Origin: a virus
Lineage: Duplodnaviria > Caudoviricetes
Virus record (IMG/VR): IMGVR_UViG_3300018481_000005
Location: 1 to 61,795 of that record
DNA length: 61,795 bases
Direction: 5' to 3' (one strand)
The position numbers were made by a program, and so were the translations under genes. Below the pieces are notes generated by a model. That model worked only from the letters and a program-made list of their open reading frames with translations, ran no database searches and was not told the DNA's origin. This document shows positions 1 to 61,795 of this stretch, one piece after another. Within the stretch, counting starts at the first letter, position 1, and every line of letters begins with the position of its first letter.

Positions 1-123
1 CAACCCTCCGCTCTTGCAGTCAGCGAACGCGCACGTCAAGGTGGCACGTCTTGCCGTCGCACTTGCGGCATGCACCTTCAGCACGGATCGCGCAGGGAGG
101 AAGCTGTTGGTCACACAAGCGCA
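1..123. repeat. Terminal direct repeat, left copy (circular assembly overlap)
   Basis: Bases 1-123 are identical to 61673-61795 and lie inside a reading frame that continues across the junction. Confidence 0.95.
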
Positions 124-478
124 CGTCAGCGGAGCGCTCAAGTTCCTCGACGGCATCTACAGTCGTGACACGTTCGGATACCGCCGACGGAGCGAACAGC
201 AACTAGAGACGACGCATCGTGCGATGCAGAACATGAATGACGCGAAGGGCTGGCTCGACAGCAACGAGGACCTCCTCATGTTCCTGTTGTCGGTTGAGTC
301 CGGAGCGTTCCGACGCGAGATGGTCGAGCAGATCCTGAACCGCAGTCGTGAGGAGAGCAATGGCATCACCAACACCTTGTTCTCCCTCGGTCTTGTCAGC
401 CCGAACGGACAGTCACTCAAGATGACTCCGACGCTGCACAAGCTGCTCCGTGAGATTCAGGAAGAGAGGATGGGATGA
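2..478 (+). CDS. C-terminal part of the primase-MCM helicase fusion (continues from 59376 across the junction)
   Basis: Frame is continuous with the ORF opening at 59376 (position 14 corresponds to 61686, same frame); reads ...YVDNPPLLQSANAHVKVARLA... Confidence 0.9.
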   Translation, partial: NPPLLQSANAHVKVARLAVALAACTFSTDRAGRKLLVTQAHVSGALKFLDGIYSRDTFGYRRRSEQQLETTHRAMQNMNDAKGWLDSNEDLLMFLLSVESGAFRREMVEQILNRSREESNGITNTLFSLGLVSPNGQSLKMTPTLHKLLREIQEERMG

Positions 479-723
479 GGGACCCAGACGCAACCGATGA
501 AGAGAAAGCGATGGACGAAGAGTTCGACGCCGCAGTAGCCAAAGCCTTCAAGGATGAAGGTCTGATGGTGACACAGTTCGCCATCGTGGTAGAGGTTGCT
601 GATGGTGATGGCGGTACTCACCTAGTCTTCCATGAGAGCGAGAGCATGTCACCGCACCTGCGTTCCGGCATGTTGCAATCCGCTCAGGTGGACTGGCCGA
701 ATGGAGATGAAGACGATGAATAA
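475..723 (+). CDS. Hypothetical acidic protein
   Basis: ATGA overlap with upstream stop, GAGAGGA RBS, 82 aa. Confidence 0.7.
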   Translation: MRDPDATDEEKAMDEEFDAAVAKAFKDEGLMVTQFAIVVEVADGDGGTHLVFHESESMSPHLRSGMLQSAQVDWPNGDEDDE

Positions 724-1552
724 GCCGTTGACAGCGGTGCTGGGATGCGGTCCGTCAGGTCTGCTCGCTGCACATGCTCTGGAGATGCGGAGCGTTCCGT
801 TCGTCATCCTGTCGAAGAAGCAGAAGTCTGTCCTCGGCGGTGCGCAGTACAGTCACATCCCGATCCCCGGCTATCACGACACGGATGACAGTGAAGTGAA
901 GCTGACGTACGAGGTGATCGGGTCGCCAGAGGTGTACAAGGAGAAGGTCTACGGAAACGCTCCTGTGCCGTTCGTAAGCATGACGCACAGGCGGGACGGG
1001 GAGATTGTGCCTGCCTGGTCCCTTACGTCGCTGTACGATCAGCTCTGGGACACGTACGTGGACCGTATCGTCGACGTGCCGCTGTCACCGGAGCGCGTGT
1101 GGCGCCTACTGGAAGGCTTCGACCTCGTGCTGTCCTCCGTGCCATTGACGAGGCTGTGCAAGGCGACCGTCGATCCCGACGTGCAGCACTGGTTCAAGTC
1201 ACAGCCCGTCCGCATCTACAACGAGGCGGTCGATCCGTCGCTTCCCGACAACACGATTCGATACGACGGGACGGAAGAGCACAGCTACTATCGGATGAGT
1301 CGCATCTTCGGTGTGGGCTCGACGGAGTGGGGCGGCACAGGTGCGGTCCCTCCGCTTCCTGACCTGATCAGTGTCAGCAAGCCGATCGGCACCAACTGCG
1401 ACTGCTTCGAGTCAAGCATCGAAGGTGATGACGTGCCGTATGGCCTCGTCAAGATCGGTCGCTTCGGTACATGGAAGAAGGGTCAACTCACGTTCCATGC
1501 GTACAACCGCGTCATCGATGTGTTGGCGCTGCGCTTCGGAGTCGGCGTATGA
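716..1552 (+). CDS. FAD/NAD-binding oxidoreductase, UDP-galactopyranose-mutase-like fold
   Basis: N-terminal AVLGCGPSGLLAA (GxGxxG) and C-terminal IGRFGTW flavin-binding motif; start MNKPL at 716 after GGAG. Confidence 0.8.
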   Translation: MNKPLTAVLGCGPSGLLAAHALEMRSVPFVILSKKQKSVLGGAQYSHIPIPGYHDTDDSEVKLTYEVIGSPEVYKEKVYGNAPVPFVSMTHRRDGEIVPAWSLTSLYDQLWDTYVDRIVDVPLSPERVWRLLEGFDLVLSSVPLTRLCKATVDPDVQHWFKSQPVRIYNEAVDPSLPDNTIRYDGTEEHSYYRMSRIFGVGSTEWGGTGAVPPLPDLISVSKPIGTNCDCFESSIEGDDVPYGLVKIGRFGTWKKGQLTFHAYNRVIDVLALRFGVGV

Positions 1553-2184
1553 TCTGCACAGAGTGCGGTCGTCATCTGAAGCCTGTCGTCGCCGTTGACA
1601 TCGACGGAACGCTCGGCAACTACCATGAGCACTTCACGGTCTTCGCGGAGATCTACCTGAACGAAGCACTGCCGCATGACTACGACGGTGGTCAGGAGTT
1701 CAGCGAGTATCTCGGTCTTGACAAGCGAGTCTATCGCGACATCAAGCTCGCGTATCGTCAGGGTGGCATGAAGCGATCGATGCCGATGTACGACGGAGCC
1801 GACAAGTTCATGCAGTGGATGCATGACGAAGGCATCGAGCTATGGATCGCGACGACGCGTCCTTGGCAACGGCTTGACAACGTTGATCCCGACACGAGAG
1901 AGTGGCTGCGTCGTTGCGGCATCCCATACGACTTCATGATCTACGGCGATGACAAGTACGATCAGCTCTACCTGCTCGTTGATCGCCATCGCATCCTGAC
2001 CGTCATCGACGACCAGCCGGAAGCGTGTCAACAGGCGGCGACACTTGGACTGAACGCTCGTCAGCCCATCCGTCCTCACAACGAGGGCGACAAGTACCTG
2101 CTTCGGTTCAAGTCGTTCAACGCGATGACGCAGGAGATCGGCTTCATGAAGCGAGACTGGGAGGAGAAGCATGGAGCGAGATGA
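1549..2184 (+). CDS. HAD-family phosphatase, 5'(3')-deoxyribonucleotidase-like
   Basis: Motif I VDIDGTL, motif II ATTR, motif IV IDD; ATGA overlap with previous gene. Confidence 0.85.
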   Translation: MICTECGRHLKPVVAVDIDGTLGNYHEHFTVFAEIYLNEALPHDYDGGQEFSEYLGLDKRVYRDIKLAYRQGGMKRSMPMYDGADKFMQWMHDEGIELWIATTRPWQRLDNVDPDTREWLRRCGIPYDFMIYGDDKYDQLYLLVDRHRILTVIDDQPEACQQAATLGLNARQPIRPHNEGDKYLLRFKSFNAMTQEIGFMKRDWEEKHGAR

Positions 2185-2653
2185 GTACTTGGATGAGCTA
2201 GGTGCGTTCAGTCGGTCGATCACTGACACGTGTCCCGACAGTCTGTTCGTCACCGTCATCGCACGTCACTGGCTGCAAGACGTAGCACCTGCACGCGCCA
2301 GGGACTACGGCATGGAGTTCTGGCAGCGGTTCGGCGCGGTCGGTGTCTTCTACCAGTTGCTCAACTGCTGGTATCGTTGGCGTCACACGATGACGAAGCG
2401 TGACACCATCGTTGACACGTTCGGATACGCGGTGCTGTTCGCCTTGTCGCTCGAGCAGCATGCGTCCGACATCAACTGGCGGTCCGTGTGGTTGCCTGCG
2501 ACACAGCCGGAGATCGTTGAGTGGCAGGAGTACATGATCATGGAGGTCCTCGACGTCGGCATGCAGTACGAACCGCAACCGTCGCACGCTTGGATCGCTC
2601 TGCGCATCGCATACGCGCAGTGGATGCACGCGAAGGAGTTGGCATGGACGTAG
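2171..2653 (+). CDS. Nmad1/DUF1599-like all-alpha (MazG-fold) nucleotide-modification-associated protein, divergent
   Basis: RDYG...FGAVG...RW...RDTIVDTFGYAVL resembles the DYG...G...RL...DTLxDLxxYA pattern of this family. Confidence 0.55.
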   Translation: MERDEYLDELGAFSRSITDTCPDSLFVTVIARHWLQDVAPARARDYGMEFWQRFGAVGVFYQLLNCWYRWRHTMTKRDTIVDTFGYAVLFALSLEQHASDINWRSVWLPATQPEIVEWQEYMIMEVLDVGMQYEPQPSHAWIALRIAYAQWMHAKELAWT

Positions 2654-3327
2654 TCAAGACATGGGTCATGGGCGGTTCACCGAACAGCATCGGAGCAGCG
2701 ATCGCGGAGGCGGTCGTCAGTGAAGGTGTTGATCACCTTGTCTTCGCGACGACGAAGGAAGAGCTCGACTGCCGCAACTGGTCGGACATGGCAGACTGGG
2801 TGAAGGAGTACGGTCCGTTCGATCGGGCTGTGTTCGCCGCAGGTGTTAGTCATCTGTCGTACATCGATCTTGAAGAGCAGGACATGGTCCGTGACGTGTT
2901 CAACGTCAACGTCAACGGCTTCATCGGCATGCTGCAAGCGTTGACCAGCGTTCAGGACTACGGCAACATCCTCGCCATAGTGTCCGACGCGTCACGTACA
3001 CCGATGCGCACGTCGTGGGCCTACTGCGCGAGCAAGGCGGCTCTCGAGATGGCTGTGCGGTGCGCAGCGCGTGAGCTAGCACCGTGGCGCATCAACGGTC
3101 TGTCACCAAGCACGGTTGAAGGCACCGACATGACACGCCACAACGACTTCGTCATCCCGCTGAAACGAGGATGGTCCCCGAGGGAAGCGAGGCAGTACGA
3201 GATGTCGATGGTCCCCATGAAGCGTCGTGTGACGCGGGAGGAGGTTGCACAAGCAGCGATCGACATCCTGAACGGACCGGAGTTCATGTCGGGCAACATC
3301 ACGTTCCTCACAGGAGGGAAGTCATGA
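2644..3327 (+). CDS. Short-chain dehydrogenase/reductase (SDR)
   Basis: MGGSPNSIG cofactor loop, AAG motif, catalytic Ser (IVSD) and YCASK (YxxxK). Confidence 0.9.
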   Translation: MDVVKTWVMGGSPNSIGAAIAEAVVSEGVDHLVFATTKEELDCRNWSDMADWVKEYGPFDRAVFAAGVSHLSYIDLEEQDMVRDVFNVNVNGFIGMLQALTSVQDYGNILAIVSDASRTPMRTSWAYCASKAALEMAVRCAARELAPWRINGLSPSTVEGTDMTRHNDFVIPLKRGWSPREARQYEMSMVPMKRRVTREEVAQAAIDILNGPEFMSGNITFLTGGKS

Positions 3328-3809
3328 TCGAGCAGTTGAAAGCGCATCAGGTGGCGATGTACGTGGAGAACGTGTTCTCCGCTGTTGACTCGATGGTCTC
3401 GCTCGGGTTCGACGAATGGATGTGGGACGAGGCGTTGCTCGTCGGCGAAGTGTACGGACGTCCGATGGAGACGAAGGCGACCATGGCGTTCAACTACCAG
3501 TTCGGTCCGAACGAGCTTGAGTTCCTGCGGTACTGGGGTCCGTCATGGCACACCGACGCAGGTCGCACCAGTGAAGCAGGTACACCGACGCATCCGTTCC
3601 TGTCACACCTGTCTATCAAGTGCGAGGACCTGGATGACGCAGCGCATGACATGAACCTTGAGCGCTTCGACGTCGTGCAGTGGTTCAAGACGCAGGATCA
3701 CAAGAACCCGCTGCTCCTCGAGCGGAAGCAGTCGTTCAACGAACGGGTCTACGGAACGCGGCACCTGTTCGGTTTCGACATCAAGCTGATCACGAGGGTA
3801 ATCGGATGA
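3324..3809 (+). CDS. VOC/glyoxalase-fold protein (methylmalonyl-CoA-epimerase-like)
   Basis: HQVAMYV...ELEFL...SHLSI pattern of paired VOC beta-alpha-beta units; GGAGGG RBS and ATGA overlap. Confidence 0.7.
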   Translation: MIEQLKAHQVAMYVENVFSAVDSMVSLGFDEWMWDEALLVGEVYGRPMETKATMAFNYQFGPNELEFLRYWGPSWHTDAGRTSEAGTPTHPFLSHLSIKCEDLDDAAHDMNLERFDVVQWFKTQDHKNPLLLERKQSFNERVYGTRHLFGFDIKLITRVIG

Positions 3810-4021
3810 CACTCAAGATCGGGAAGGCAGTCATCTGGTACTGCACCATCGACGAACGCGGATGCGGCTTCTTCGGTTTCTACAAGCCGGAGTCAACGAT
3901 CACGCGACGGAAGTGTCCAGCTTGCGGTTTGTTCAGTCCGTACCGCATGATTGAGGGCGAGCTTGCAGAGTTCAGCATCACGGAAGCTCCCACGGTGTCA
4001 CAGGAGGGAGGTCACGAGTGA
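3806..4021 (+). CDS. Small Cys-containing (zinc-ribbon-like) protein
   Basis: C-x6-C...CPAC; overlaps both neighbours by 4 nt. Confidence 0.55.
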   Translation: MTLKIGKAVIWYCTIDERGCGFFGFYKPESTITRRKCPACGLFSPYRMIEGELAEFSITEAPTVSQEGGHE

Positions 4022-7000
4022 AGTTCGTATCGCTGCACCACCATTCGACGTACAGCTTCTTGGATGGATACGGTCATCCGTCGGAACACGTGCAGCGAGC
4101 GGTCGATCTTGACATGCGCGCTCTCGCCCTGACGGAGCATGGGAACGTGAGCAGCCATCCGAAGCTTGAGCGAGCCGCGACGGAAGCGGGGATCAAGCCC
4201 ATCTTCGGATGCGAGTTGTACTGCGGTGCGCCAGGGATGCAGCGGAAGAACCACCTGTCGGTCTGGGCGCAAGATGAGGAGGGATATCGCAACCTGCTTC
4301 GGATGCTCACCATCGCATGGACGAAGGAGGAAGACGGTGGCGGGTTCTACTACCAACCGACGGTACATGGGAACGTTCTGTCAGATCATAGTGACGGACT
4401 CATTGTCGCTTCCGGCTGCACAGGCAGTCTTCTCGCTACTAGCCTCATCGGAGGGAAGAACATCGAGCCTGAGGATGCGTCGTACGATCGTGGTCTTCGT
4501 GTCGCCTCTCGGTTCAGGTCTCTGCTTGGTGACAGGTATTATCTCGAGACACAAGCCTTTCCAGAACTCACCGACGCAACGTGCAAGATCAATCCGCTTC
4601 TGGCACGCATCAGTCGGAAGCTGAAGATCCCTCTCGTCGCGACACAGGACGTCCACTACTGCATGCCTGATCACAACGAGATGCAGGTGATCCTCCATGC
4701 TGTGCGACCCGGACAGAACCTGTCGTACGAGGAGCAAGCACGTTCATGGGGATACGATGTGCTGCTCTGCCATCCGCAGTCTGACGCGGAGGTTGTCAAG
4801 AAGCTTGTCGGCACAGGTCTGACACCTGCACAGGCGCAGGAGGCTGTGGAGAACACAGGCGTCATAGCGGATCGCACAGCGCTCACACTGCCGAAAGCGG
4901 CACCGCTGCACTTCCCGCTCCCGCGAGGCGTAGCGACCACTAGGATCCTGTGGATGGACCTCCTGCGTGAGGGCTGGCGGTACAGGCGCATCAGCGACAA
5001 GGAACGTGTCGACGAGTACGCAGCACGGCTCAAGTACGAAGTGGAGATGATCGAGTCGAAAGACTTCATCGACTACTTCCTGATCGTGTCAGACATGGTG
5101 CGATGGGCGAAGGATCACGGCATCTTCGTCGGACCTGCACGGGGAAGCGCAGCCGGAAGCCTCGTGTGCTACCTGCTCCGCATCACGGAGGTCGACCCGA
5201 TGCTGTTCCGCGACCTGATCTTCGAACGCTTCATCGACACGACGCGCATGGACCTACCTGATATCGATCTTGACTACGACGACAGGCGACGACACGAGGT
5301 CTTCGAGTACCTGTCCGACAAGTACGGTCACGAGTATGTCTCCATGCTCGGAACGTTCGGGACGTACAAGCCGAAGCTCGCGCTTGACGATGTCGCACGT
5401 GTGTTCCGCGTGCCGCAATGGGAAGTCAACAGCGTCAAGGACCTGCTCCTGGAGCGGTCGTCCGGTGACCTGCGTGCATCCGCAGGCATCGAGGACACCG
5501 TCGCAACGTTCGACGAGGCGAAGAAGGTGTTCGACGAGCATCCCGATCTGTACAAGTCCATGAAGCTTGAAGGCATGGTGAAGGGGATGGGTCGTCACGC
5601 GGCAGGAGTGCTCGTGTCATCAACGCCGCTGACGGAGACGTGCGCGGTGTATGGCGAGACGGTTAGCATCGACAAGCATGACGCGGAGTATCTGAACCTC
5701 TTGAAGATCGACAATCTCGGTCTGAGCAACTGCGGGATGCTTGACGAAGCGGCACAGCTACTCGGAGCCGACATCAACCTGTTCTACGAGCTACCACTTG
5801 ACGACCCTGCGACGCTGCAAGGTTTCAAGGACGATGACCTGACAGGCATCTTTCAGTTCGACGGACGTGCGATGCGCATCGTGAATCGCAACCTGAAGCC
5901 CGACAACTTCTACGAGGTCTGCACCGTCAACGCTCTCGCACGTCCGGGACCGCTTCACAACAACTCCATGATCCACTACGTCGAAGTCAAGCATGGTGAG
6001 CGACAGCCCGAAGCGGTGCATCCGTTGTTCGATGACATCGTCAAGGACACGCAGTGGCAGGTCGTGTATCAGGAGCAGATCCTGCGCATCGTCCGTGAGA
6101 TCGGCAACTTCGACTGGACTGCGGCTGCATCCATCCGCAAGATCATGTCGAAGAAGCAGGGAGAGCAAGCGTTCAACCGCGAGTGGGAGCGCTTCTGGAA
6201 AGGTGCGAAGGAGAACGGGTTCACGGAGGACCAAGCGAAGAACATCTGGGGACTGTGCATCACGGCAGGAGCGTACGCCTTCAACGCTGCACACTCCGTC
6301 AGCTATGGCATGCTCGGATGGTGGACGATGTGGTTGAAGCAGCACCATCCCCTGGTCTTCTACGTGTCCGCCTTGCGACGCCTGCCTGACAACACGAGCA
6401 GCGGTAGCAAGGCGTCCAAGCATCACATGCTGATGCGTGACGCGGCTCGGCACGGCATCAAGGTGCAGCCGCCTGACATCGAACGAAGCGAGGTGACGTG
6501 GACGTCGGTCGGTGACGACACGTTGCTCGCAGGCTTCGAGCAGATCCCTGGCGTCGGTAGTGTGATGGCGCAGAAGATCGTTGACTACCGTGATGACGTC
6601 GGATTGCAAGAGTGGGAAGATCTCATCAACGTCAAGGGCATCGGGAACAAGACCATCGCGAAGTACCTGGAGTGGGTGTACGCCGAAGATCCGCTGCAGA
6701 TCTACACGCTTGACCGTCAGCTCGAGAAGATCAAGAAGGAGATCGAGAAAGGCAAGCTGCGCGGCAGGAACGGCACGCTTCCGACACCGACGCACACCGT
6801 CGAAACGTTCCCTGACGGCAAGGGCAAGGACATCAGCATCGTGTGGATGGGAAGCATCGTCAACCGAAACCTCCGCGATCTCTACGAGGTGAACTTCAGC
6901 CGCACAGGTGTAGAGCTTGATCCTGAGACGGTGAAGGACCCGAACTTGCGTGAGTGGGTGCTGCTACACGGCACCGACGGCGACGACATCCTGACGATCA

Positions 7001-7146
7001 CGATCGATCGTTGGAAGTACCCGCGATTCAAGGAGGTGGTGTGGAGACTGAATCTCGCCAAGGACATCGTGTTGATACGCGGTGTCAAGAAGGGACACAT
7101 GGCTCAGAAACAGCTTTACGTGTCGGAGATGTGGGTCCTCGAATGA
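4018..7146 (+). CDS. dnaE: DNA polymerase III alpha subunit (family C)
   Basis: PHP motif HHHSTYSFLDG and LTEHG, GPARGSAAGS, catalytic PDIDLD, GRHAAG, GIFQF, YQEQI, YAFNAAHS; 1042 aa, no intein seen. Confidence 0.97.
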   Translation: MKFVSLHHHSTYSFLDGYGHPSEHVQRAVDLDMRALALTEHGNVSSHPKLERAATEAGIKPIFGCELYCGAPGMQRKNHLSVWAQDEEGYRNLLRMLTIAWTKEEDGGGFYYQPTVHGNVLSDHSDGLIVASGCTGSLLATSLIGGKNIEPEDASYDRGLRVASRFRSLLGDRYYLETQAFPELTDATCKINPLLARISRKLKIPLVATQDVHYCMPDHNEMQVILHAVRPGQNLSYEEQARSWGYDVLLCHPQSDAEVVKKLVGTGLTPAQAQEAVENTGVIADRTALTLPKAAPLHFPLPRGVATTRILWMDLLREGWRYRRISDKERVDEYAARLKYEVEMIESKDFIDYFLIVSDMVRWAKDHGIFVGPARGSAAGSLVCYLLRITEVDPMLFRDLIFERFIDTTRMDLPDIDLDYDDRRRHEVFEYLSDKYGHEYVSMLGTFGTYKPKLALDDVARVFRVPQWEVNSVKDLLLERSSGDLRASAGIEDTVATFDEAKKVFDEHPDLYKSMKLEGMVKGMGRHAAGVLVSSTPLTETCAVYGETVSIDKHDAEYLNLLKIDNLGLSNCGMLDEAAQLLGADINLFYELPLDDPATLQGFKDDDLTGIFQFDGRAMRIVNRNLKPDNFYEVCTVNALARPGPLHNNSMIHYVEVKHGERQPEAVHPLFDDIVKDTQWQVVYQEQILRIVREIGNFDWTAAASIRKIMSKKQGEQAFNREWERFWKGAKENGFTEDQAKNIWGLCITAGAYAFNAAHSVSYGMLGWWTMWLKQHHPLVFYVSALRRLPDNTSSGSKASKHHMLMRDAARHGIKVQPPDIERSEVTWTSVGDDTLLAGFEQIPGVGSVMAQKIVDYRDDVGLQEWEDLINVKGIGNKTIAKYLEWVYAEDPLQIYTLDRQLEKIKKEIEKGKLRGRNGTLPTPTHTVETFPDGKGKDISIVWMGSIVNRNLRDLYEVNFSRTGVELDPETVKDPNLREWVLLHGTDGDDILTITIDRWKYPRFKEVVWRLNLAKDIVLIRGVKKGHMAQKQLYVSEMWVLE

Positions 7147-7159
7147 AGGAAGGTCTGAC

Positions 7160-7552
7160 ATGAAGAAGACGATCATGGCCGTCATCGCGACGGTGTTGGT
7201 GATGAGTGCGCTGTCCGCAGGTGCGGACCCAGCCGCATTGACGCAGGTGAGTACGGATCGCGTGCTCGGAAGGGGATTGCACCTGACGCACTGCATCCGT
7301 CAGCCCAACAACGCTAGGGAGTGGCGCAGGTTCAGCACGTGTACATCGCGCAACGATGACGCGGTGCAGCAGTGGGGTCATCGCATGGACGTGTGCTTGG
7401 CCATCTACCGCGTCAATGAGCGCAACGATGACGCGTACAGCACGGCAGATCCGTTGGTGCTTCAGACGGCTCCTGGTCTTGCACCAGCAGACCTCGGAGG
7501 ACCAGCCAAGTTCCTGATGCTGTGGAAGCAGACAGCGTTCTGCACCGCCTAG
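7160..7552 (+). CDS. Secreted protein
   Basis: MKKTIMAVIATVLVMSALSA signal peptide, four Cys, AAGGAAGG RBS. Confidence 0.7.
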   Translation: MKKTIMAVIATVLVMSALSAGADPAALTQVSTDRVLGRGLHLTHCIRQPNNAREWRRFSTCTSRNDDAVQQWGHRMDVCLAIYRVNERNDDAYSTADPLVLQTAPGLAPADLGGPAKFLMLWKQTAFCTA

Positions 7553-12393: not shown

Positions 12394-12716
12394 ACACCTG
12401 TCCGAACCCGCGTTGCACCATGGAACACAAGTACGAACGCACCGAGATAGAGACGTACGGATGCATGTCATGGTGGCATCAGTTCCTCGAGCTCCCCAAC
12501 ATCTGGCCGGAGAAGGTGCTGCGTCCTGTCAGCGCACAGCCCGACGGCATGGGTCAGCTCGCAGGTGAGATGGAGCCGATGGTCGGCGTTGACGTCGGCG
12601 GGATGAAGCACGTTGACTCGGTTCGCTCCGGTCCGCCTCCGACACGTGCAAGGCGTGCGGAGAAGACCACCGTCATGCCGCCGAACCCTGTGCAGGTGTG
12701 GCTTGACACGGACTGA
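12390..12716 (+). CDS. Hypothetical protein
   Basis: GTGA overlap; N-terminal Cys pair. Confidence 0.5.
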   Translation: MNTCPNPRCTMEHKYERTEIETYGCMSWWHQFLELPNIWPEKVLRPVSAQPDGMGQLAGEMEPMVGVDVGGMKHVDSVRSGPPPTRARRAEKTTVMPPNPVQVWLDTD

Positions 12717-12919
12717 TGAAGCGCAGCGTGAAGCCGAACGTGTCATCAGTCGTGACGCACTGCTCGCGACGGGATGGCAGCTTGAAACGTGTGGCACGTG
12801 CGGAAGCATGGTCATCCTCGGTCACAAGGTGTGGACGCTTGCCTGTGCAGGCGTGCCGCAGTGCAGTTGGACGTGTCTCGCGAAGGCGAGCATGGGATCT
12901 TCGTTATGAAAGGGGAGAC

Positions 12920-13180
12920 GTGCCAGGGAAGCCCGGACCGCACAGTGATCGGAAGCCGTTGTTCGTGGAGTTCGCTCCATGTCAGCGTCAACCCGATCTG
13001 TTCTATGCGAAGGACAAGGATCTCGTCCAGCGGGCGAAAGAGATCTGTCACACCTGTCCGGCGATGATTCGTTGTCGGACACACGCCATGCGTCAACGTG
13101 AACCATATGGCGTTTGGGGTGGGATGTCAGAACGTGATCGTCACCGTGTATGGCGCAGATTGCGTCGGCGCGTAGCGTAA
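12920..13180 (+). CDS. whiB: WhiB-family Fe-S transcription factor
   Basis: Four Cys (C...CHTC...C) and YGVWGGMSERDR motif; GTG start after AAAGGGGAG. Confidence 0.92.
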   Translation: MPGKPGPHSDRKPLFVEFAPCQRQPDLFYAKDKDLVQRAKEICHTCPAMIRCRTHAMRQREPYGVWGGMSERDRHRVWRRLRRRVA

Positions 13181-24994: not shown

Positions 24995-25865
24995 TGCTTG
25001 GCAACGTGCCGCAGCGCGGAACGACCAGCGTCGGCTTCTCAAGCTCATTCAGGAGACCGACGCGACGATGGTTGACATCGTGAGCGACACCGCCAAGAAG
25101 TCGGAACGCCTAATCGCCCGTAGCGTCGGCGGCAAGGGAATCGGCGCACAGGTACGGCTCGCTCAGTACCGTCAGGTACGGTCCAGCATGTTCCAGCTAG
25201 CGACCGACATGTGGGGCGACCAGGTTCCTGCCGCAGTGTTGAACGGCATCGACACGTCAAGTCAGATGGCTGTCAACGCTCAGAAGGAGATGCTCGCGTT
25301 CCTCAGCAAGATCGCTCCTGACGCTGCAAGCATGCTCGTCGAGTCGATGCGACACAGCGCAGCCCAAACGTTCGAGAGCCTGCGGTCGCGACTGCTCAAT
25401 GGCGTCAACCTGTCGCCAAACGTGTACCGGAACCGCGCATACATGATGGGGAAGATCGACAGCATCGTGAACGAGGGCATCCTGCTCCAGCAGTCGGCGA
25501 AGGAGATCGCTGACAACGTGTATCAGCACATCAATCCGAAGGTCGTCGGTGGTCAGAAGTACGCAGCCATGCGTCTCGGTCGCACCGAACTGAACAACGC
25601 CTATCACTCGACGAGCATCCGGTCGTATCAGCAGTCGCCGTACGTCGAAGGCGTGCAGTGGTCGCTCAGCGGCAGTCACGCGAAGCCTGATGACTGTGAC
25701 GCGTACGCCGGAGACGACTCGTACAACATGGGAACAGGTGTCTTCCCGACGAACAACGTTCCTGACAAGCCGCATCCCCAGTGCTTCTGCTTCATCACGG
25801 CGATCACGCCGGACCCTGACGAGTTCCTTCGCAGGTTGCAGCGAGGGGAGTACAACTGCGGATGA
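24984..25865 (+). CDS. MuF-like minor capsid protein
   Basis: After portal; RLGRTE, WSLS..H..DDC and HPQCFC motifs. Confidence 0.85.
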   Translation: MKASAWQRAAARNDQRRLLKLIQETDATMVDIVSDTAKKSERLIARSVGGKGIGAQVRLAQYRQVRSSMFQLATDMWGDQVPAAVLNGIDTSSQMAVNAQKEMLAFLSKIAPDAASMLVESMRHSAAQTFESLRSRLLNGVNLSPNVYRNRAYMMGKIDSIVNEGILLQQSAKEIADNVYQHINPKVVGGQKYAAMRLGRTELNNAYHSTSIRSYQQSPYVEGVQWSLSGSHAKPDDCDAYAGDDSYNMGTGVFPTNNVPDKPHPQCFCFITAITPDPDEFLRRLQRGEYNCG

Positions 25866-26533
25866 GTGTCTGCGCGACGGAACCGATGACCGATGCAGCG
25901 TGGGATCAAGCACGTGTCGCGAACGCTCAAGGCACCATGGAGATGGAGGACGCTCAGACGTGGGGGACGATCGAGTCGGATGACTGGTGGTTCGAACTTG
26001 ACGACGAGACGCAGAAGGCGTTCAGTCTGTACAAGAGCGGGAACTACGGCGTCATCAACGACGCGCTGCGTGGCGGTACGAAGATGACTGACGAGGCTGC
26101 ATCCTCCATCGCACGTATGGACGCGGCTCTTGACACTGCTTCGCTGTCAGAAGACGTGGTCGCCGTGCGACACATCGACAAGTACGCATTCAACGATATG
26201 TTCGGAACGACCAAAGCTGACTACGAGTTTGGCGGCTTCTGGAAGGAAGACCCGCGTCGCTTCGTCGGTGCAACGTTCGGTGACGATGCGTACACGTCAA
26301 CGAGCATGTCGTCAGACTTCACATGGGGTGACATCCCGATGGAGGTGCGAGTGCCTCGCGGGTATCAGGCTGCGTACCTTGACCCTGCGATGTTCAACGG
26401 TTCCTCACTGCTCGGGTCGCATGAGTGTGAACTACTGTTGAAGCGCGGCACACGTTTCCGCATCGTCGGGATGGACACGGAACTTGACCAAGGAGCACAC
26501 GAGATCACGAAGCTCATTCTGGAGGTTATCTGA
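25862..26533 (+). CDS. ADP-ribosyltransferase (VIP2/C2-like, R-STS-ExE class)
   Basis: Y...INDALR, AVR, YTSTS, ECELLLKRG; ATGA overlap with MuF. Confidence 0.88.
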   Translation: MSVCATEPMTDAAWDQARVANAQGTMEMEDAQTWGTIESDDWWFELDDETQKAFSLYKSGNYGVINDALRGGTKMTDEAASSIARMDAALDTASLSEDVVAVRHIDKYAFNDMFGTTKADYEFGGFWKEDPRRFVGATFGDDAYTSTSMSSDFTWGDIPMEVRVPRGYQAAYLDPAMFNGSSLLGSHECELLLKRGTRFRIVGMDTELDQGAHEITKLILEVI

Positions 26534-49577: not shown

Positions 49578-49697
49578 CAGGGACCGCAACAGGGTATGGG
49601 CGCAGCCGCCTATGCCGTGCCTGCACCACACCCGAACGTAGGTGCAGGGAGCAGCACGTTCCACACCGCATCAGATCAAGGACCAAGGAGGAACACC

Positions 49698-51587
49698 ATG
49701 GAGAAGGCAGTCTTCGCCGAGCTGAGTGCTGACGGTCGTTCGATCGAGATCTACTTCGACCCGTCACCGCGATGGCTCGCAATCATGCACGAGATGCGCG
49801 CTCGTTTCATGCCCAAGGACAAGGCACCGGAAGGTGTCGCTCACTGGCGTCTGCACCTTGACTGGCCGGATGCGCAAGAACTCGCAGCCCGCGTCGGCAA
49901 GGAGAACCTGACGCTTGGTGATCAACTGAACGAGTGGGCGTGGACGCAGAAGCAGATCGCAGAGACGGTTCACGAGTTGGTCGGCGCGTCATCCGGCGAA
50001 CTGTCCCGTCTCCCCGAAGTTCTGCCGGACCTGTACGACGCTGTCTTCCTTGGTCCGATCGGCAAGAACATGAACGACAAGGAGCGGAAGGTCGGGTTGG
50101 CTGCGGACGAAGGTTCGTATCAGACCGCTGACGTCGCGTTCATGTCGTTCACGGAGCACGTCCTCAACGCCAACCAGCCGGGGACGGGGAAGACCATCGA
50201 GACGATCGCAAGCATCTTCGAAGCAGGCACCGATGACGGTCCGAACCTTGTCATCGCACCGCTGACGGCGCTTGAGACCGTGTGGCTGGAGCACTTGCAG
50301 AAGTGGCAGCCGCATCCCGTCATCATGGGAGCAGGCGAGCGGATGCCGCGTGCCAAGCGAGAGCGTGCCATGTACGAGATGCAGGTCATGCTCGACAGCG
50401 GTCACCCGTTCTTCTACGTGTGCAACCCGGACATGGTTCGCATGCGCAAGGAGAAGAGTGGCGAGGAAGACGGCAACGTCGTTCACCTGTACTCGGAGTG
50501 GCCGTTGCTGCACGACATCGAGTGGAACAACATCATCATCGATGAAGTGCATCGCGGTGCGCTGCGCAACCCGAAGTCGTACACCGCTCAGGGGATGTAC
50601 AAGCTCAAGAGCGCTGAGGGTGGCAAGCGTTTCGCGTTGTCGGGTACGCCGCTCGGAGGACGTCCCATCAACCTGTGGGGCATCCTTCACTGGCTGCATC
50701 CCGACAAGTTCTCGTCGAAGTGGCGTTGGGCGCAGCAATGGCTCGACCTGTCGGACAACGGGTACGGCACCGACATCGGTGGCATCAAGGAAGCACGGGT
50801 CGATGACTTCTACAAGGAGCTCGAGCCGTACATGGTGCGTCGTACCAAGGCTGAAGTGCTGACGTGGCTTCCGCCGAAGGATCACATCGACGTGTGGTGC
50901 GACATGACTCCGAAGCAAGAGAAGCAGTACAAGGAGTTCGCACTTGCCGCCGAAGTGAAGATCGGTGACATGCAGTTGACCGCGACATCCATCCTCGCCG
51001 AGTACACGCGTCTGAAGCAGTTCGCTGGCGCGGTGCAGGACTTGGAGGTCAAGGACGATGGGTCGAAGAAGCTGCACGCGCAGCCCGACAGCGGCAAGCT
51101 GAACCAGGTACTCGAGCACTTGGAGGAGCTCGGTATCCTGGAGGACGGCAAGGCGGTCGAGGAGACCAAGGCTCAGACAGTCATCTTCAGTCAGTTCGTT
51201 GAGATCGTGCAGATGTTCGCGAAGGACCTGTCCGATCGCGGCGTGCGCGTCATGACACTGACTGGCGAGACGAAGGACCGGATGCATGTGCAGAAGTCGT
51301 TCCAAGCAGGTGAAGTGACGGTCGCGATCTGTCAGACGATCACCGGCGGTCAGAGCATCGACTTGGACATGGCTGACACGTGCTTCATCCTTGACGAGAC
51401 CTGGAACCCCGACGACCAGGAGCAAGCCGAAGACCGTATCCACCGTGGTAGCCGTATCCACCAGGTGACGTGCTACTACCTGCGAACGAAAGGAACCGTA
51501 GACGAGTACATCAAGAAGACGACAGACCGCAAGGGTGGTATCAACAAGATGGTGCTCGATGACTGGCGCAACCTGCGCCTCGTCTGA
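49698..51587 (+). CDS. SNF2-family (SF2) helicase
   Basis: NQPGTGKT, IIIDEVH, LSGTP, VIFSQF, WNP...QAEDRIHR; start after AAGGAGG. Confidence 0.93.
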   Translation: MEKAVFAELSADGRSIEIYFDPSPRWLAIMHEMRARFMPKDKAPEGVAHWRLHLDWPDAQELAARVGKENLTLGDQLNEWAWTQKQIAETVHELVGASSGELSRLPEVLPDLYDAVFLGPIGKNMNDKERKVGLAADEGSYQTADVAFMSFTEHVLNANQPGTGKTIETIASIFEAGTDDGPNLVIAPLTALETVWLEHLQKWQPHPVIMGAGERMPRAKRERAMYEMQVMLDSGHPFFYVCNPDMVRMRKEKSGEEDGNVVHLYSEWPLLHDIEWNNIIIDEVHRGALRNPKSYTAQGMYKLKSAEGGKRFALSGTPLGGRPINLWGILHWLHPDKFSSKWRWAQQWLDLSDNGYGTDIGGIKEARVDDFYKELEPYMVRRTKAEVLTWLPPKDHIDVWCDMTPKQEKQYKEFALAAEVKIGDMQLTATSILAEYTRLKQFAGAVQDLEVKDDGSKKLHAQPDSGKLNQVLEHLEELGILEDGKAVEETKAQTVIFSQFVEIVQMFAKDLSDRGVRVMTLTGETKDRMHVQKSFQAGEVTVAICQTITGGQSIDLDMADTCFILDETWNPDDQEQAEDRIHRGSRIHQVTCYYLRTKGTVDEYIKKTTDRKGGINKMVLDDWRNLRLV

Positions 51588-52317: not shown

Positions 52318-52472
52318 TGCCTGACGTGCAACTGTGCGAGTGGTTCGCTATGTGCGCGAACCCTGCGGACGGCATGATGCCGCATCCGATCCTCGGTGGT
52401 GTGCCGTGCTGTGAAAGGTGCGCAGCCGTTGTCGGTGCAGAGTCGGAGCTAGTGAAAGGAACGTTCGAGTGA
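52317..52472 (+). CDS. Small Cys-rich protein (absent from ORF track)
   Basis: CEWFAMCANPA...HPILG.VPCCERC; AAAGGAGG RBS. Confidence 0.65.
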   Translation: MPDVQLCEWFAMCANPADGMMPHPILGGVPCCERCAAVVGAESELVKGTFE

Positions 52473-55181: not shown

Positions 55182-56027
55182 ATGACAGAGACCAGCGGTC
55201 CTGTTCCGATCCGTCTGTTGGACGACAAGCCGTTCAACAAACACAGCATGAACGTCAACAATCAGACGTCACCGTTCGACAACGGCAATGTCGACGTCGG
55301 CGTCGACAACATCACTGTCAAGCTCGTGCAGGGCATCGATGAGGATGCGCTGCGTATCACTCTCGGCCGTAGCGTTCTCGCTACGATCGGCGTGGACCCC
55401 AACGTTCCGCCGGAGAAGCTCCCTTGGGAAGAGATGTTCAAGGGAGGGCTTCAGACGGCACTTGAGTCACAGGTCTTGGTCTTCGAAGTCGCGGGAGTCT
55501 CGCGCACCTGTACTCATCAGTTGGTCCGGTCCCGTCGTGCCGCATTCCATCAGCAGTCGCAACGTGCAAGCTTCATGGGGAACCGACCTGACACGCGCCT
55601 ACCCATGTCCGTCTTTCGCAACACCAGAGCGCATGCAGCCGCGATGGAAGCGATCGCCGCTGCACATCACGCCTACGAGATCGCATGCGAAGAGGACATC
55701 GCCTTCCAGGATGCGCGGTTCATCCTGCCGGAGGGGACGGAGACGTACATCCTCTGTGAGTACCCGATCCGTGAGTTCCTCAACGTCTACGCCTATCGCG
55801 CGTGCAGCATGTTTCAGTGGGAGATCATGACGGTGATGCGTCTGATGAAGCAGGAGCTCGTCGCCGCGCATCCGTGGATCGAGAAGTACGTCAAGATCAC
55901 GTGCGAGAAGACGAAGGTCTGCGAGTTCCAGGGATGGGAACGTGTCGAGGGACACTGCGAACTGCCTTGGGCCAAGGAGGACAACCGACGGTATCAACCT
56001 GATCCGTCGCTGCGGATCGGCGGGTGA
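55182..56027 (+). CDS. thyX: Flavin-dependent thymidylate synthase (ThyX) family, divergent
   Basis: GVSRTCTHQLVRSRRAAFHQQSQR, QDARFILP, QWEI; several canonical residues replaced. Confidence 0.85.
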   Translation: MTETSGPVPIRLLDDKPFNKHSMNVNNQTSPFDNGNVDVGVDNITVKLVQGIDEDALRITLGRSVLATIGVDPNVPPEKLPWEEMFKGGLQTALESQVLVFEVAGVSRTCTHQLVRSRRAAFHQQSQRASFMGNRPDTRLPMSVFRNTRAHAAAMEAIAAAHHAYEIACEEDIAFQDARFILPEGTETYILCEYPIREFLNVYAYRACSMFQWEIMTVMRLMKQELVAAHPWIEKYVKITCEKTKVCEFQGWERVEGHCELPWAKEDNRRYQPDPSLRIGG

Positions 56028-59375: not shown

Positions 59376-61795
59376 ATGCAGAAGTCACAGACATTCGAGA
59401 CGTTGAAGCCGTTCCTCATCGAGGAGGTCGGCAACGACGAGTGGGACATGCGCTGTCCGCTGCACGGTGACAGGAAGCGGTCAGCACGTGTCAACTTCGA
59501 GAAGGGTCTGTGGAACTGTTTCGCTGGCTGTGGTGGTGGACGCCTGACTGGTCTCTTGCGCAGGATGAAGACCGAAGGCCAAACGGTCACATCGAAGACG
59601 CGTAAGTCCACGAAGAGCGGCAAGGCACGCTCTGGGAGATCAGTCACGCCTGATGATGTATCGCGGTGGCACCGGACGCTACTGGGAGACGCGGTGCAGC
59701 GGGAGAACCTCCTGCTCAAGCGCGGCATCAACGAAGACACCATCCGAGAGTACGAACTTGGGTGGGATCAGATCAGTCAGGCGTTCACCATCCCCGTCTA
59801 TGAGCAGGACGGCACACTGTTCAACGTTCGGAAGTACCGACCGAACGCACCGTCAGACAAGAAGATCTTCTGGGCGGTTCCGAAGGACCCCGACAAGAAG
59901 GTTCCGCTGTATCCCGAGTCGTCTATGGACTCTGACGCGGTAGTGCTTGCTGAAGGTGAGACGGACGCGTTGATGTCGTGTCAAGTCGGAGTTCCCGCAG
60001 TGACAGGGACGGCAGGAGCGAACACGTGGCGCATGGAGTGGTCGGAACGGTTCAAGGGGAAGCAGGTGTTCATCGCATACGACCGCGACTCTGCGGGCGA
60101 GAAAGGAGCGCGACAAGCGGCTGAGCACCTTGAACCGTTCGCTCGCGACATCTTCCTCGTCAAGATCCCGTTGAGGAAGCCCGGAGCAGACATCAGCGAC
60201 TATCTCTTGACACGCGAGAAGTCGGAGTGGCTGACGGTCCTGAAGCGGGCGAAGCCGTATCAAGTACGCAAGTCAGACCCGATGGACATGCAGCCCGTCG
60301 ATGTCAGTGTGATGGGGTCGTTCGACGCGCAGAACGTCGGACGTGCGCAGAGCATGGAGGTGTTGATTCAGGCACGGTCGAAGGACCCGTTCTCACTGCC
60401 CAAGGTTGTCCACAGCACGTGCAGCATGGATGCTGGTAAGCAGTGCGCGATGTGTCCGATGATGCAGCGGAACGGCGAGCATGACTGGGCACTGCGTCCG
60501 TCGTCTCGCAACCTGCTCGCCATGGTCGGCACACCTGAAGCGACGCAGGCGGAAGCGATGCGCAAGGAAGTTGGCGCAGCGAAGTGTCAAGTGTTGCGAC
60601 ACGAGGTGACGTCCTATCAGTCGGTCGAGCAGTTGTACGTCCGTCCGTCATGGGAGGAAGAGTCGGGAGACTTCACACCGCGTCGCGTCCTTGGCATCGG
60701 CAAGCACGACACGCTTCCGTCGCAGACAGTGCGTCTCGTAGGAACGACGTGGCCGGAACCGAAGGAACAGCGCAACGAGTTCATGGCATGGACGGTTGAG
60801 GAATCAGAGAACGCCATCGACGAGTTCCGCATGACACCGGACCTGGCGCGTGACCTGCGTCAGTTCCAACCGGAGAAAGGACAGACACCGCTGCGCAAGC
60901 TGTGGGACATGGCGGCAGACCTTGAGTCGCACGTCACACGCATCTACGGACGACGCGACCTGCACATCGCCATCGACTTGGTGTATCACTCCGTCCTCGC
61001 GTTTCCGTTCCGAGGAGGGCTGGAACGCCGTGGATGGCTTGACGCACTGATCGTCGGTGACACACGGACAGGGAAGTCGGAAGCAGCGAAGCGCATGGGT
61101 GAGCACTACCGCGTCGGGAAGATGGTCAACTGTGAAGCAGCAACGTTCTCTGGTATCGTCGGTGGGCTTGAGAAGATGGGTGACAAGGAGTGGGCCGTCA
61201 ACTGGGGTGCTGTGCCGATGAACGATCGTCGGCTTGTCATCCTCGACGAAGTCAGTGGGCTGTCGTACGAGCAGATCCAGCAGATGTCAGACATCAGAAG
61301 CGCAGGGACGATCACCTTGCAGAAGATCCGACAGGAGCAAGCATGGGCGAGGACGCGTCTGCTCTGGCTCGGGAACCCGCGTGATGCAGGCATGGATCAG
61401 TACACCTACGGCGTCATGGCGGTGCAGCCGTTGATCGGCAACCGTGAGGACATCGCACGTTTCGACTTCGCGATGGCGTTGACGTCATCCGACATCAAGC
61501 TCAAGGACATCCATCAACGTCCGATGACGGGTGAACCGCAGTACACGTCCGACGAGTGCCACTCCCTCGTTCTCTGGGCATGGTCACGACAGCCCGATGA
61601 CGTTGAGTGGATCGGCACCGCTGAGGAAGACGTGATGAAAGCAGCGGCATGGCTCGGTGACAGGTACGTCGACAACCCTCCGCTCTTGCAGTCAGCGAAC
61701 GCGCACGTCAAGGTGGCACGTCTTGCCGTCGCACTTGCGGCATGCACCTTCAGCACGGATCGCGCAGGGAGGAAGCTGTTGGTCACACAAGCGCA
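59376..61795 (+). CDS. CHC2 zinc finger + TOPRIM primase + MCM-family AAA+ helicase fusion (absent from ORF track; wraps to 478; about 924 aa)
   Basis: Hand translation: CPLHGD...WNCFAGC; AEGETD and YDRD (TOPRIM); IVGDTRTGKS, VILDE, LGNP, IARFD (MCM-type Walker A/B, sensor 1, Arg finger). Confidence 0.9.
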   Translation, partial: MQKSQTFETLKPFLIEEVGNDEWDMRCPLHGDRKRSARVNFEKGLWNCFAGCGGGRLTGLLRRMKTEGQTVTSKTRKSTKSGKARSGRSVTPDDVSRWHRTLLGDAVQRENLLLKRGINEDTIREYELGWDQISQAFTIPVYEQDGTLFNVRKYRPNAPSDKKIFWAVPKDPDKKVPLYPESSMDSDAVVLAEGETDALMSCQVGVPAVTGTAGANTWRMEWSERFKGKQVFIAYDRDSAGEKGARQAAEHLEPFARDIFLVKIPLRKPGADISDYLLTREKSEWLTVLKRAKPYQVRKSDPMDMQPVDVSVMGSFDAQNVGRAQSMEVLIQARSKDPFSLPKVVHSTCSMDAGKQCAMCPMMQRNGEHDWALRPSSRNLLAMVGTPEATQAEAMRKEVGAAKCQVLRHEVTSYQSVEQLYVRPSWEEESGDFTPRRVLGIGKHDTLPSQTVRLVGTTWPEPKEQRNEFMAWTVEESENAIDEFRMTPDLARDLRQFQPEKGQTPLRKLWDMAADLESHVTRIYGRRDLHIAIDLVYHSVLAFPFRGGLERRGWLDALIVGDTRTGKSEAAKRMGEHYRVGKMVNCEAATFSGIVGGLEKMGDKEWAVNWGAVPMNDRRLVILDEVSGLSYEQIQQMSDIRSAGTITLQKIRQEQAWARTRLLWLGNPRDAGMDQYTYGVMAVQPLIGNREDIARFDFAMALTSSDIKLKDIHQRPMTGEPQYTSDECHSLVLWAWSRQPDDVEWIGTAEEDVMKAAAWLGDRYVDNPPLLQSANAHVKVARLAVALAACTFSTDRAGRKLLVTQA
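61673..61795. repeat. Terminal direct repeat, right copy
   Basis: Identical to 1-123. Confidence 0.95.

Follow-up and report, generated by a model that had tools for sequence, protein, structure and literature searches.

A candidate nucleotide-modification cassette built around a UGM-like flavoprotein, located between the primase-helicase and DnaE genes of an actinophage and recurring in phages of two host phyla

Thymine is replaced before replication in certain Bacillus phages, whose DNA contains 5-hydroxymethyluracil (hmU; SPO1 and phi-e) or uracil (U; PBS1 and PBS2) and whose enzymes include a dUMP hydroxymethylase, a dTTPase/dUTPase, a dTMP nucleotidase and a dCMP deaminase. Here we describe a gene cassette with a similar cast, found between the primase-helicase gene and the gene for a DnaE-type DNA polymerase in IMG/VR record IMGVR_UViG_3300018481_000005. 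The whole of that record, a complete actinophage genome of 61,795 bases with 59% G+C, is referred to below as the window. As in the hmU- and U-DNA Bacillus phages, a thymidylate-synthase-type enzyme, a deoxyribonucleotidase-like phosphatase and a protein whose fold may be of the NTP-pyrophosphatase kind adjoin the phage's own polymerase. Unlike in those phages, the one-carbon enzyme is of the ThyX and not the ThyA type, a flavoprotein resembling UDP-galactopyranose mutase (UGM) is a constant member, and base modification is only predicted.

Two further classes of system invite comparison. The thymidine hypermodification clusters of phages M6, ViI, PaMx11 and SP10 act after replication, through a ThyA-family dUMP hydroxymethylase, a 5-hmdU DNA kinase and aGPT-Pplase transferases, and the passages of PMC8989533 devoted to them speak of "combinatorial permutations". 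The present cassette likewise combines a fixed core with varying tailoring enzymes, and a GR2-type flavoenzyme can join the hypermodification clusters as well (gp47 of PaMx11, according to the same passages); their hydroxymethylase, DNA kinase and aGPT-Pplases, on the other hand, were not found by Pfam searches of the 74 open reading frames (ORFs) of the window. In the pathways to glycosylated 5-hydroxycytosine (RB69, DLP3, RL38J1), the relevant parts of PMC13326640 list ThyA homologues, a full-length UGM, sugar-activating enzymes and DNA glycosyltransferases. These pathways resemble the cassette in using a thymidylate-synthase homologue that works with flavin, a phosphatase of the haloacid dehalogenase (HAD) type and, in RL38J1, a UGM (PMC13326640, same parts); they differ from it in that neither a ThyA homologue nor a true UGM, sugar-activating enzyme or DNA glycosyltransferase was detected in the window. 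The cassette is a member of neither class and at most works like them.

The cassette is real and far more widespread than a single genome shows. In the window, seven genes (475-4021, all on the + strand) are packed between primase-helicase and DnaE (Table 1), with successive overlaps of 8, 4, 14, 10, 4, 4 and 4 nt from gpA through to DnaE, and the ORF list and sequence place a GGAG-like site upstream of most cassette starts. The contig is a circularised assembly with an exact direct terminal repeat of 123 nt (1-123 = 61673-61795), and the cassette can be placed between helicase and polymerase because the primase-helicase gene spans the contig junction and runs on to 478; its 2-478 part matches phrog_18685. 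An initial reading of this DNA from its letters alone (the sequence-only reading) had described overlapping, translationally coupled enzyme genes between helicase and DnaE. The gene models, with overlaps of 4-14 nt, bear this out, and add two small genes, gpA and gpG, that had gone unmentioned.

The genome encodes a WhiB protein, the DnaE polymerase and ThyX, and its protein relatives are found in phages of Mycobacterium, Gordonia, Microbacterium, Streptomyces, Arthrobacter and Nocardia. DnaE of the window is 43-45% identical to DnaE of cultured actinophages, and megablast against the phage collection found no near-identical DNA for window positions 1-7200.

Recurrence of the cassette was followed in 86 loci, made up of the best 80 of 185 confirmed IMG/VR loci, five cultured phages and the window, whose ORFs were classified with profiles built from the window proteins; counts of co-occurrence are centred on carriers of the flavoprotein (gpB). 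The synteny is not a matter of chance, since it recurs across these 86 loci. A complete interval from flavoprotein to DnaE was present in 72 of them, and among the complete intervals the HAD gene was almost always included (70/72), gpD frequently so (54/72), a short-chain dehydrogenase/reductase (SDR) in about a third (25/72) and a protein of the vicinal oxygen chelate (VOC) fold in ten, never without the SDR. Of the 81 loci with an HAD gene, 64 have it immediately behind the flavoprotein gene. Eight loci contain all five enzymes, and in seven of these the flavoprotein is 32-37% identical to that of the window. The five enzymes are not one obligate unit.

The remainder of the interval, which holds from two to nine genes, varies widely in content. 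Members of the uracil-DNA glycosylase (UDG) superfamily appear in 13 loci, S-adenosylmethionine (SAM) methyltransferases in 9, dCTP deaminases/dUTPases in 7 and DUF6378 proteins in 7, with PP-loop Asn-synthase-like proteins (4 loci) and MazG (3 loci) being rarer; dCTP or dCMP deaminases are added in some relatives, and 52 of the unclassified interval ORFs are singletons. The UDG-superfamily, dCTP deaminase/dUTPase, MazG and DUF6378 genes of the relatives agree with the nucleotide-metabolism context that had been proposed from the window alone. To judge by these gene families, the interval is a slot for nucleotide metabolism in which flavoprotein and HAD form a constant core. The PP-loop Asn-synthase-like ATPase sits between flavoprotein and HAD in four IMG/VR phages (for example L058:8238-9242), where it could provide an amidating tailoring step.

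Of 50 records that carried the flavoprotein, 49 also had a ThyX gene, as did all 34 of those at least 90% complete, the lone miss being a record rated 81% complete; in three loci ThyX lies inside the flavoprotein-to-DnaE interval itself. Co-occurrence of the cassette enzymes across phages was all but complete for ThyX with the flavoprotein (49/50) and partial for the SDR (25/72) and VOC (10/72). ThyX of the window does lie on the same strand as the cassette, as had been remarked in placing it at the head of a co-directional block, but this carries little weight in a genome whose + strand carries nearly every long ORF.

Homologues of gpB were located by tblastn in 126 records of cultured actinophages, annotated only as "oxidoreductase". 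In the cultured phages the cassette homologues likewise lie upstream of DnaE and are annotated by name, and the literature searched reports neither a function nor any DNA chemistry for them. Full-text searches returned only genome announcements with gene names, such as PMC10893344 in the portion that deals with its genes, and no function assigned to the cassette. The description of the cassette as "undescribed" is therefore apt for its function and not for the flavoprotein gene itself, which was already annotated in the 126 cultured phage records. Among the cultured carriers, Mycobacterium phages Chill and PBI1 have the flavoprotein, HAD, a methyltransferase, gpD and the SDR, and Microbacterium phage Ajin has the flavoprotein, HAD, SDR and VOC; Mycobacterium phage Onyinye and the BASEL Wifcevirus isolates Bas98-101 are carriers too. 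In Ajin, Wollypog and Onyinye, inserted genes (an HNH endonuclease in Wollypog) divide DnaE into two annotated genes.

A similar gene set also occurs well outside the actinophages. Distant loci were located by a search with the window ThyX, and their neighbourhoods were then inspected. In the E. coli phage Mansfield (Wifcevirus), one row of genes comprises a "UDP-galactopyranose mutase" (so named by the depositors, from HHpred), a hypothetical gene, ThyX, an HAD phosphatase, an SDR, a small hypothetical gene, a glyoxalase-family gene and the epsilon and alpha subunits of DNA polymerase III; the gene order is the same in Xanthomonas phage XcP1 and in Aeromonas phage Gekk3-15. The actinophage profiles match the Mansfield and XcP1 proteins at 2.4e-48 and 7.5e-51 for the SDR, 4.8e-32 and 2.1e-30 for the VOC protein, and 7.6e-43 and 1.9e-48 for ThyX. 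The gpB family aligns with the "UGM" proteins of Mansfield and XcP1 at an hhalign probability of 94.7%, over 116 columns outside the Rossmann motif, and tblastn with the window VOC protein returned 13 records, from phages of Xanthomonas, Xylella, Luteibacter, Aeromonas and Microbacterium. Kinship of the HAD proteins across the two phyla comes down to phrog_415, which both lineages match: the actinophage HAD profile found nothing in Mansfield or XcP1, and by Pfam the proteobacterial proteins are HAD_PNKP. The actinophage gpD profile has no counterpart in either phage.

On this homology, the set of flavoprotein, ThyX, HAD, SDR, VOC and DnaE is shared with Wifcevirus and with Xanthomonas and Aeromonas phages, an association newly noted here. 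Adjacency of these genes to one another and to DnaE, seen in phages from two phyla, is hard to explain unless the flavoprotein, ThyX, HAD, SDR and VOC proteins function jointly. The proteobacterial HAD proteins are extended at the C-terminus by a region with a match to phrog_4889 ("polynucleotide kinase/phosphorylase"), in which Pfam found no kinase domain; the proteins are L096:6166-7599 (Gekk3-15; 477 aa), L094:7729-8796 (355 aa) and L093:7630-8502 (290 aa).

Table 1. Cassette genes and associated replication genes of the window
Gene	Position	Strand	Description
gpA	475..723	+	82 aa, acidic; 8-nt overlap with gpB
gpB	716..1552	+	278 aa, flavoprotein-like; two-domain fold of the UGM/protoporphyrinogen oxidase (PPO)/amine-oxidase type
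gpC	1549..2184	+	211 aa, HAD phosphatase of the 5'-deoxyribonucleotidase (NT5C) or polynucleotide kinase (PNK)-phosphatase kind; DIDGT motif
gpD	2171..2653	+	160 aa, all-alpha; no named family
gpE	2644..3327	+	227 aa, classical SDR; YCASK motif and Gly-rich N-terminus
gpF	3324..3809	+	161 aa, VOC (glyoxalase/dioxygenase) fold, phage-specific family; TQxHxNP motif
gpG	3806..4021	+	71 aa, CxxC pairs; 4-nt overlap with gpF and with DnaE
DnaE-type DNA polymerase III alpha	4018..7146	+	1042 aa; PHP, DNA_pol3_alpha, finger and HHH domains (Pfam)
ThyX-like flavin-dependent thymidylate synthase homologue	55182..56027	+	281 aa; Pfam Thy1
primase-helicase	59376..61795, resuming at 2-478 across the terminal repeat	+	924 aa; Toprim and MCM-like P-loop

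A constant member of the cassette, gpB, belongs to a virus-dominated family. It matches phrog_8720 at 1.3e-51 and no Pfam family, has 169 homologues at E<=1e-5, and falls in Atlas clusters of which the best are 96-100% viral. An AlphaFold2 (AF2) model, built on an alignment of 59 sequences, reached a pLDDT of 94.7. The closest structure in a VIA search was a UGM, 4dsg_A (Z 15.4, rmsd 4.1, 265 of 278 residues aligned), with protoporphyrinogen oxidases, p-hydroxybenzoate hydroxylase (PHBH)-type monooxygenases and amino-acid oxidases next at Z of about 13, and the bacterial UGMs 3hdq_A and 4mo2_A at 12.7 and 12.6; the best Foldseek match was again a UGM (2.7e-8, TMq 0.50). The GxGxxG Rossmann motif is present as GCGPSG at residues 10-15, with G10, G12 and P13 invariant across the 59 family sequences.

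Fold and top matches thus liken gpB to UGM (Glf), whereas its length and sequence set it apart. Comparison with PDB chains by phmmer and with the family profile matched only residues 1-50, the region of the GxGxxG motif, to assorted flavoproteins, and gave no UGM match. UGM contains a UDP-binding helical domain with Arg and Tyr residues; gpB is some 85-110 residues shorter than the listed bacterial UGM chains (278 aa against 363-388), and the other flavoenzyme classes follow close behind in structure. "UGM-like", as applied to the model of gpB, is accordingly a statement of fold and not of family membership. A complex prediction for gpB with gpD, the latter as possible supplier of a missing helical lid, scored 0.00, a result that counts neither way. 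The family has three invariant cysteines, C148 and the pair C228-x-C230 in a TNCDC motif, along with an unusual Ser-Lys-Lys after strand 2, at a position that is commonly acidic in FAD enzymes. The cofactor or the redox chemistry of gpB may be atypical.

The HAD protein, gpC, passes the Pfam NT5C model (PF06941; 30.8 bits against a cut-off of 24.8, 3.3e-7, residues 38-205 of the long ORF), as does its Onyinye homologue with 35.2 bits, and contains HAD motif I (DxDxT) as VDIDGTLG. A better match is found to phrog_415, a family of the PNK-phosphatase type (3.9e-17), so that the nucleotidase role of gpC is putative; phmmer against PDB gave no match at E<=0.1.

Assignments for gpD are weak. A full HMMER search gave 44 homologues, and the AF2 model (pLDDT 96.2) is a seven-helix protein. 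VIA matched it to the dimeric dUTPases 5myd_A and 1w2y_A (Z 7.0 and 6.1 over 113-115 residues) and, further down the list, to 2oie_A (Z 4.7) and 3c90_X (Z 4.6), representing dCTP pyrophosphatase and HisE; these values are all under the tool's reliability level for helical proteins. Foldseek against PDB returned nothing at E<=0.001. Across 41 sequences the invariant residues are W34, Y46, G47, G55, R69, D82 and G85. Comparison of the family with the neighbouring DUF6378, MazG and UDG families and three unnamed ones gave hhalign probabilities below 1% each. The sequence-only reading had likened gpD to Nmad1 or the MazG fold. Nmad1 corresponds to the family DUF1599 (PF07659) in Pfam; that model matched 0 of 41 gpD-family members at E<=1 and nothing in the whole genome at E<=10, and the lone lead towards Nmad1 is an Atlas language-model feature match of 0.88 with 181 shared features. 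Of the fold calls made at the outset, those of flavoenzyme, HAD, SDR and VOC have held up, while that of an Nmad1/MazG-like protein is reduced to a weak lead.

The two optional enzymes are of recognisable types. The SDR, gpE, matches Pfam adh_short at 6.8e-22 as well as phrog_3142, and carries the classical marks of its class, YCASK (Tyr-x3-Lys) and a GGSPNSIG cofactor motif; many generic SDR models of NCBIfam match it, all far under their cut-offs, with pteridine reductase (6.7e-17) among the best. The VOC protein, gpF, scores 18.5-18.8 bits against Pfam Glyoxalase_4, under the cut-off of 27, and four of ten family members match that model weakly (best E 0.002). A profile of the ten sequences matches PDB 3gm5_A, "lactoylglutathione lyase and related lyases", at 8.2e-7 over 115 positions, while the single sequence gave only chance-level matches to PDB by phmmer. 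As for the small proteins, gpA has no Pfam, PHROG or NCBIfam family and, by phmmer, no homologue in the other 85 loci; gpG has no Pfam or NCBIfam family, is likewise found in the window alone among the 86 loci, and can be read as Zn-ribbon-like.

ThyX of the window passes Pfam Thy1 (PF02511) with 93.8 bits against a cut-off of 24.8, falls short of the NCBIfam equivalog TIGR02170 (79.3 bits, cut-off 87.9), and matches phrog_35637 at 3.2e-99. ThyX enzymes bear the signature motif RHRx7S. In the window the motif reads RSRRAAFHQQSQR, such that RSRx7SQR replaces RHRx7SxR, and both alignment to the M. tuberculosis enzyme and the motif counts show that the Arg..Arg...Ser.Arg core is kept. The motif could be read in 43 of 47 ThyX ORFs from flavoprotein loci, 17 of which have RQR, 15 RSR, 10 RTR, one RNR and none RHR. 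By eye, XcP1 and Mansfield have RTR and a Rhizobium phage RNR, while STSV1, an archaeal virus, and Aeromonas phage Gekk3-15 have RHR. The change from RHR to RSR, RTR or RQR had been considered as a mark of new chemistry, an idea weakened by the finding that ThyX of proteobacterial and Rhizobium phages also lacks the histidine. On these readings the altered motif marks a broad group of phage ThyX proteins and not the cassette. The "divergent ThyX" of the sequence-only reading is divergent in having RSR for RHR, and this is not special to the actinophage lineage of the cassette.

What the analysis shows directly is which genes are present, their folds and homology, how tightly they are coupled, and their synteny and joint occurrence in two host phyla. 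From this we favour, at a probability of roughly 0.4, the view that the cassette is a pre-replicative pyrimidine-nucleotide pathway yielding a non-canonical thymidine analogue, its substrates, product and presence in DNA being inferred. In such a pathway, the ThyX homologue would add a one-carbon unit at C5 of dUMP, and the UGM-like flavoprotein would work on a uridine-type nucleotide. The HAD phosphatase and, in actinophages, gpD would drain the competing canonical pyrimidine nucleotide, as happens in U-DNA and hmU-DNA phages, and DnaE would incorporate the analogue. Tailoring would be optional, carried out by the SDR-VOC pair or, in other relatives, by the SAM methyltransferase. The pathway reading is supported by location within the replication module and coupling right up to DnaE, by recurrence of the flavoprotein-HAD core, often with gpD, upstream of DnaE, by the near-universal presence of ThyX in carriers, by the contiguous set in Mansfield, XcP1 and Gekk3-15, by the nucleotide enzymes that relatives have in this interval, and by the likeness of a fixed core with varying tailoring enzymes to the thymidine hypermodification clusters.

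Were the product a small modification of the 5-hydroxymethyl-dU class, ordinary sequencing would show it as T and it would give only partial protection from restriction, so that it might have been overlooked in cultured relatives; it would fit the ordinary sequencing of the 126 cultured carrier records together with partial protection and continuing palindrome avoidance (see below). A more specific version holds that a ThyX-type enzyme, a UGM-like covalent-flavin enzyme and a phosphatase make a new 5-substituted deoxyuridine that replaces thymidine fully or in part in DnaE-encoding phages of Actinobacteria and Gammaproteobacteria; this we advance only tentatively and regard as unlikely in all its particulars. 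The route first sketched for the window, in which a carbon or sugar-derived chain attached to C5 of dUMP is then reduced and epimerised, is partly contradicted, because the SDR and VOC enzymes are accessory.

Several observations weigh against a thymidine analogue. The SDR and VOC genes are missing from most relatives and are therefore inessential to the core function. No Glu is conserved among the 41 gpD sequences, whose sole invariant acidic residue is D82; all-alpha NTP pyrophosphohydrolases such as MazG, HisE and dimeric dUTPase have conserved acidic metal-binding residues, and the fold matches of gpD, as noted, are under the reliability level for helical proteins. ThyX may be an ordinary thymidylate synthase, in which case a role of HAD and gpD in draining dTMP or dTTP would be futile. 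Pfam searches of the 74 window ORFs (E<=0.001-0.01), which short ORFs and very divergent members could escape, turned up no kinase, DNA transferase, aGPT-Pplase, ThyA-type hydroxymethylase or glycosyltransferase family, nor any PurZ, deazaguanine or nucleotidyltransferase family, in agreement with what had been said of PurZ, 7-deazaguanine, hydroxymethylase, glycosyltransferase and kinase genes at the outset. The literature searched holds no report of unusual DNA for the 126 cultured carrier records, which is absence of evidence only. The runs that hold part of this stretch of DNA are eight metagenome runs (two with at least half of its words), available as contigs only and with no RNA run listed, and contigs cannot show base modification.

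Palindromes, T-containing ones included, are also strongly avoided in the window. Observed and expected counts are 0 and 36 for GTGCAC, 6 and 37 for CTGCAG, 12 and 34 for TCCGGA, 0 and 10 for GCCGGC, and 2 and 23 for CCGCGG; CCGG and GGCC are avoided as well, and palindromes take 8 places among the 20 most depleted 6-mers, where 0.3 would be expected. In the five cultured actinophage loci, palindromes make up 4 to 10 of the 10 lowest 6-mers. Such avoidance shows long exposure to type II restriction, and the choice of sites is probably a reflection of the host's restriction systems. Mansfield avoids palindromes equally (14 of its 20 lowest 6-mers), and avoidance was dropped as a test against modification: it does not discriminate, because avoidance and reported restriction resistance coexist in this phage. 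The sections of the BASEL study on Wifcevirus describe isolates insensitive to all tested defence systems, restriction-modification (RM) systems and others alike, and leave the restriction resistance, to which EcoP1_I is the exception, unexplained. A hidden modification of the DNA by cassette enzymes would be in keeping with that resistance, as a correlation only.

Much of the same evidence can be accommodated by a module for thymidylate supply that makes no modified base. A normal ThyX, an SDR resembling FolM or pteridine reductase, an HAD protein acting like Dmp or in house-cleaning, and a flavoprotein and gpD in redox or nucleotide-binding support would together furnish DnaE with a fast and balanced flow of dTTP. 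The pairing of ThyX with a folate-reductase SDR would have its counterpart in td and frd of phage T4, and the HAD protein in Dmp, the deoxyribonucleotidase of T5. The dUMP-binding Arg/Ser/Arg core is kept in ThyX, pteridine reductase is among the best models for the SDR, and relatives have dCTP deaminase/dUTPase, MazG and UDG-superfamily genes in this interval; palindrome avoidance suits unprotected DNA, and Pfam found neither transferase nor kinase in the window ORFs. Yet a 5'-nucleotidase opposes dTTP supply and is nonetheless the most constant partner (70/72), and known thymidylate synthesis has no use for a UGM-like flavoprotein or a VOC enzyme, both of which are linked to ThyX in two phyla. 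The SDR matches, moreover, are generic, that to pteridine reductase being far under its cut-off, and the restriction resistance of Wifcevirus would stay unexplained. We consider this module, the main rival, possible and, on balance, unlikely. The same constancy of certain partners tells against another account, an accessory-gene hot spot with no pathway, which would explain an interval of two to nine genes with variable content and 52 singletons among its unclassified ORFs; adjacency of flavoprotein and HAD in 64 of 81 loci, and contiguity of specific SDR and VOC families with flavoprotein and ThyX in phages of Actinobacteria and Gammaproteobacteria, make it very improbable.

The fold of gpB raises the further prospect of a nucleotide-sugar pathway, in which a UGM-like mutase, an SDR ketoreductase, a VOC isomerase or epimerase and an HAD sugar-phosphate phosphatase would make an unusual (d)NDP-sugar for glycosylating DNA, virion proteins or the host envelope. 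In structure gpB indeed comes closest to UGM (Z 15.4), the Mansfield homologue was annotated as UGM by its depositors, Microbacterium phage Ajin has an annotated glycosyltransferase directly after DnaE, and DNA glycosylation in Rhizobium phage RL38J1 makes use of a true UGM encoded by the phage, as stated in the relevant part of PMC13326640. However, Pfam found no glycosyltransferase or nucleotidyltransferase family in the window, and the 58 of 68 kb of Mansfield examined have no such annotation; gpB itself has no UGM sequence match past the N-terminal dinucleotide motif and is about 85-110 residues shorter than the listed bacterial UGM chains. The SDR belongs to the short, classical kind and, like VOC, is missing in most carriers. 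A sugar product is improbable on these grounds. Distinctly improbable, too, is a small-molecule pathway for counter-defence or host takeover, which would produce or remove a signal or inhibitor derived from a nucleotide and leave phage DNA unaltered. Enzymes directed at nucleotides and encoded in the replication-gene region would suit it, as would the insensitivity of Wifcevirus to all tested defence systems and not to RM alone, in the sections of the BASEL study on that genus. But no cassette member matched a known family in such a role (no PADLOC scan was made), and constant adjacency to DnaE and ThyX would be unexpected.

Returning to the thymidine analogue, if phage DNA is altered, a flavin- and ThyX-based route would join the known ThyA-based pathways of pyrimidine modification as the first ThyX-based route to DNA modification, and would be present in well over 100 cultured teaching-lab phages as well as in BASEL reference phages. 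It would also offer a candidate explanation for the restriction resistance of Wifcevirus left unexplained in the BASEL study, in its sections on that genus. If phage DNA is unaltered, what emerges is a flavoenzyme family, widespread and uncharacterised, that is tied to ThyX and to DnaE replication. Either outcome can be tested directly, since there are carriers in culture on Mycobacterium smegmatis mc2 155, Microbacterium foliorum and derivatives of E. coli K-12.

Elsewhere in the window, all on the + strand, are genes for a WhiB-family regulator (12716-13180), a SNF2-family helicase (49596-51587) and a LuxR/GerE-type helix-turn-helix protein (52418-52717). Among the apparent head genes, just upstream of a scaffold-like gene, an ORF at 25862-26533 on the same strand encodes an ADP-ribosyltransferase exoenzyme domain (PF03496, 1.4e-22).

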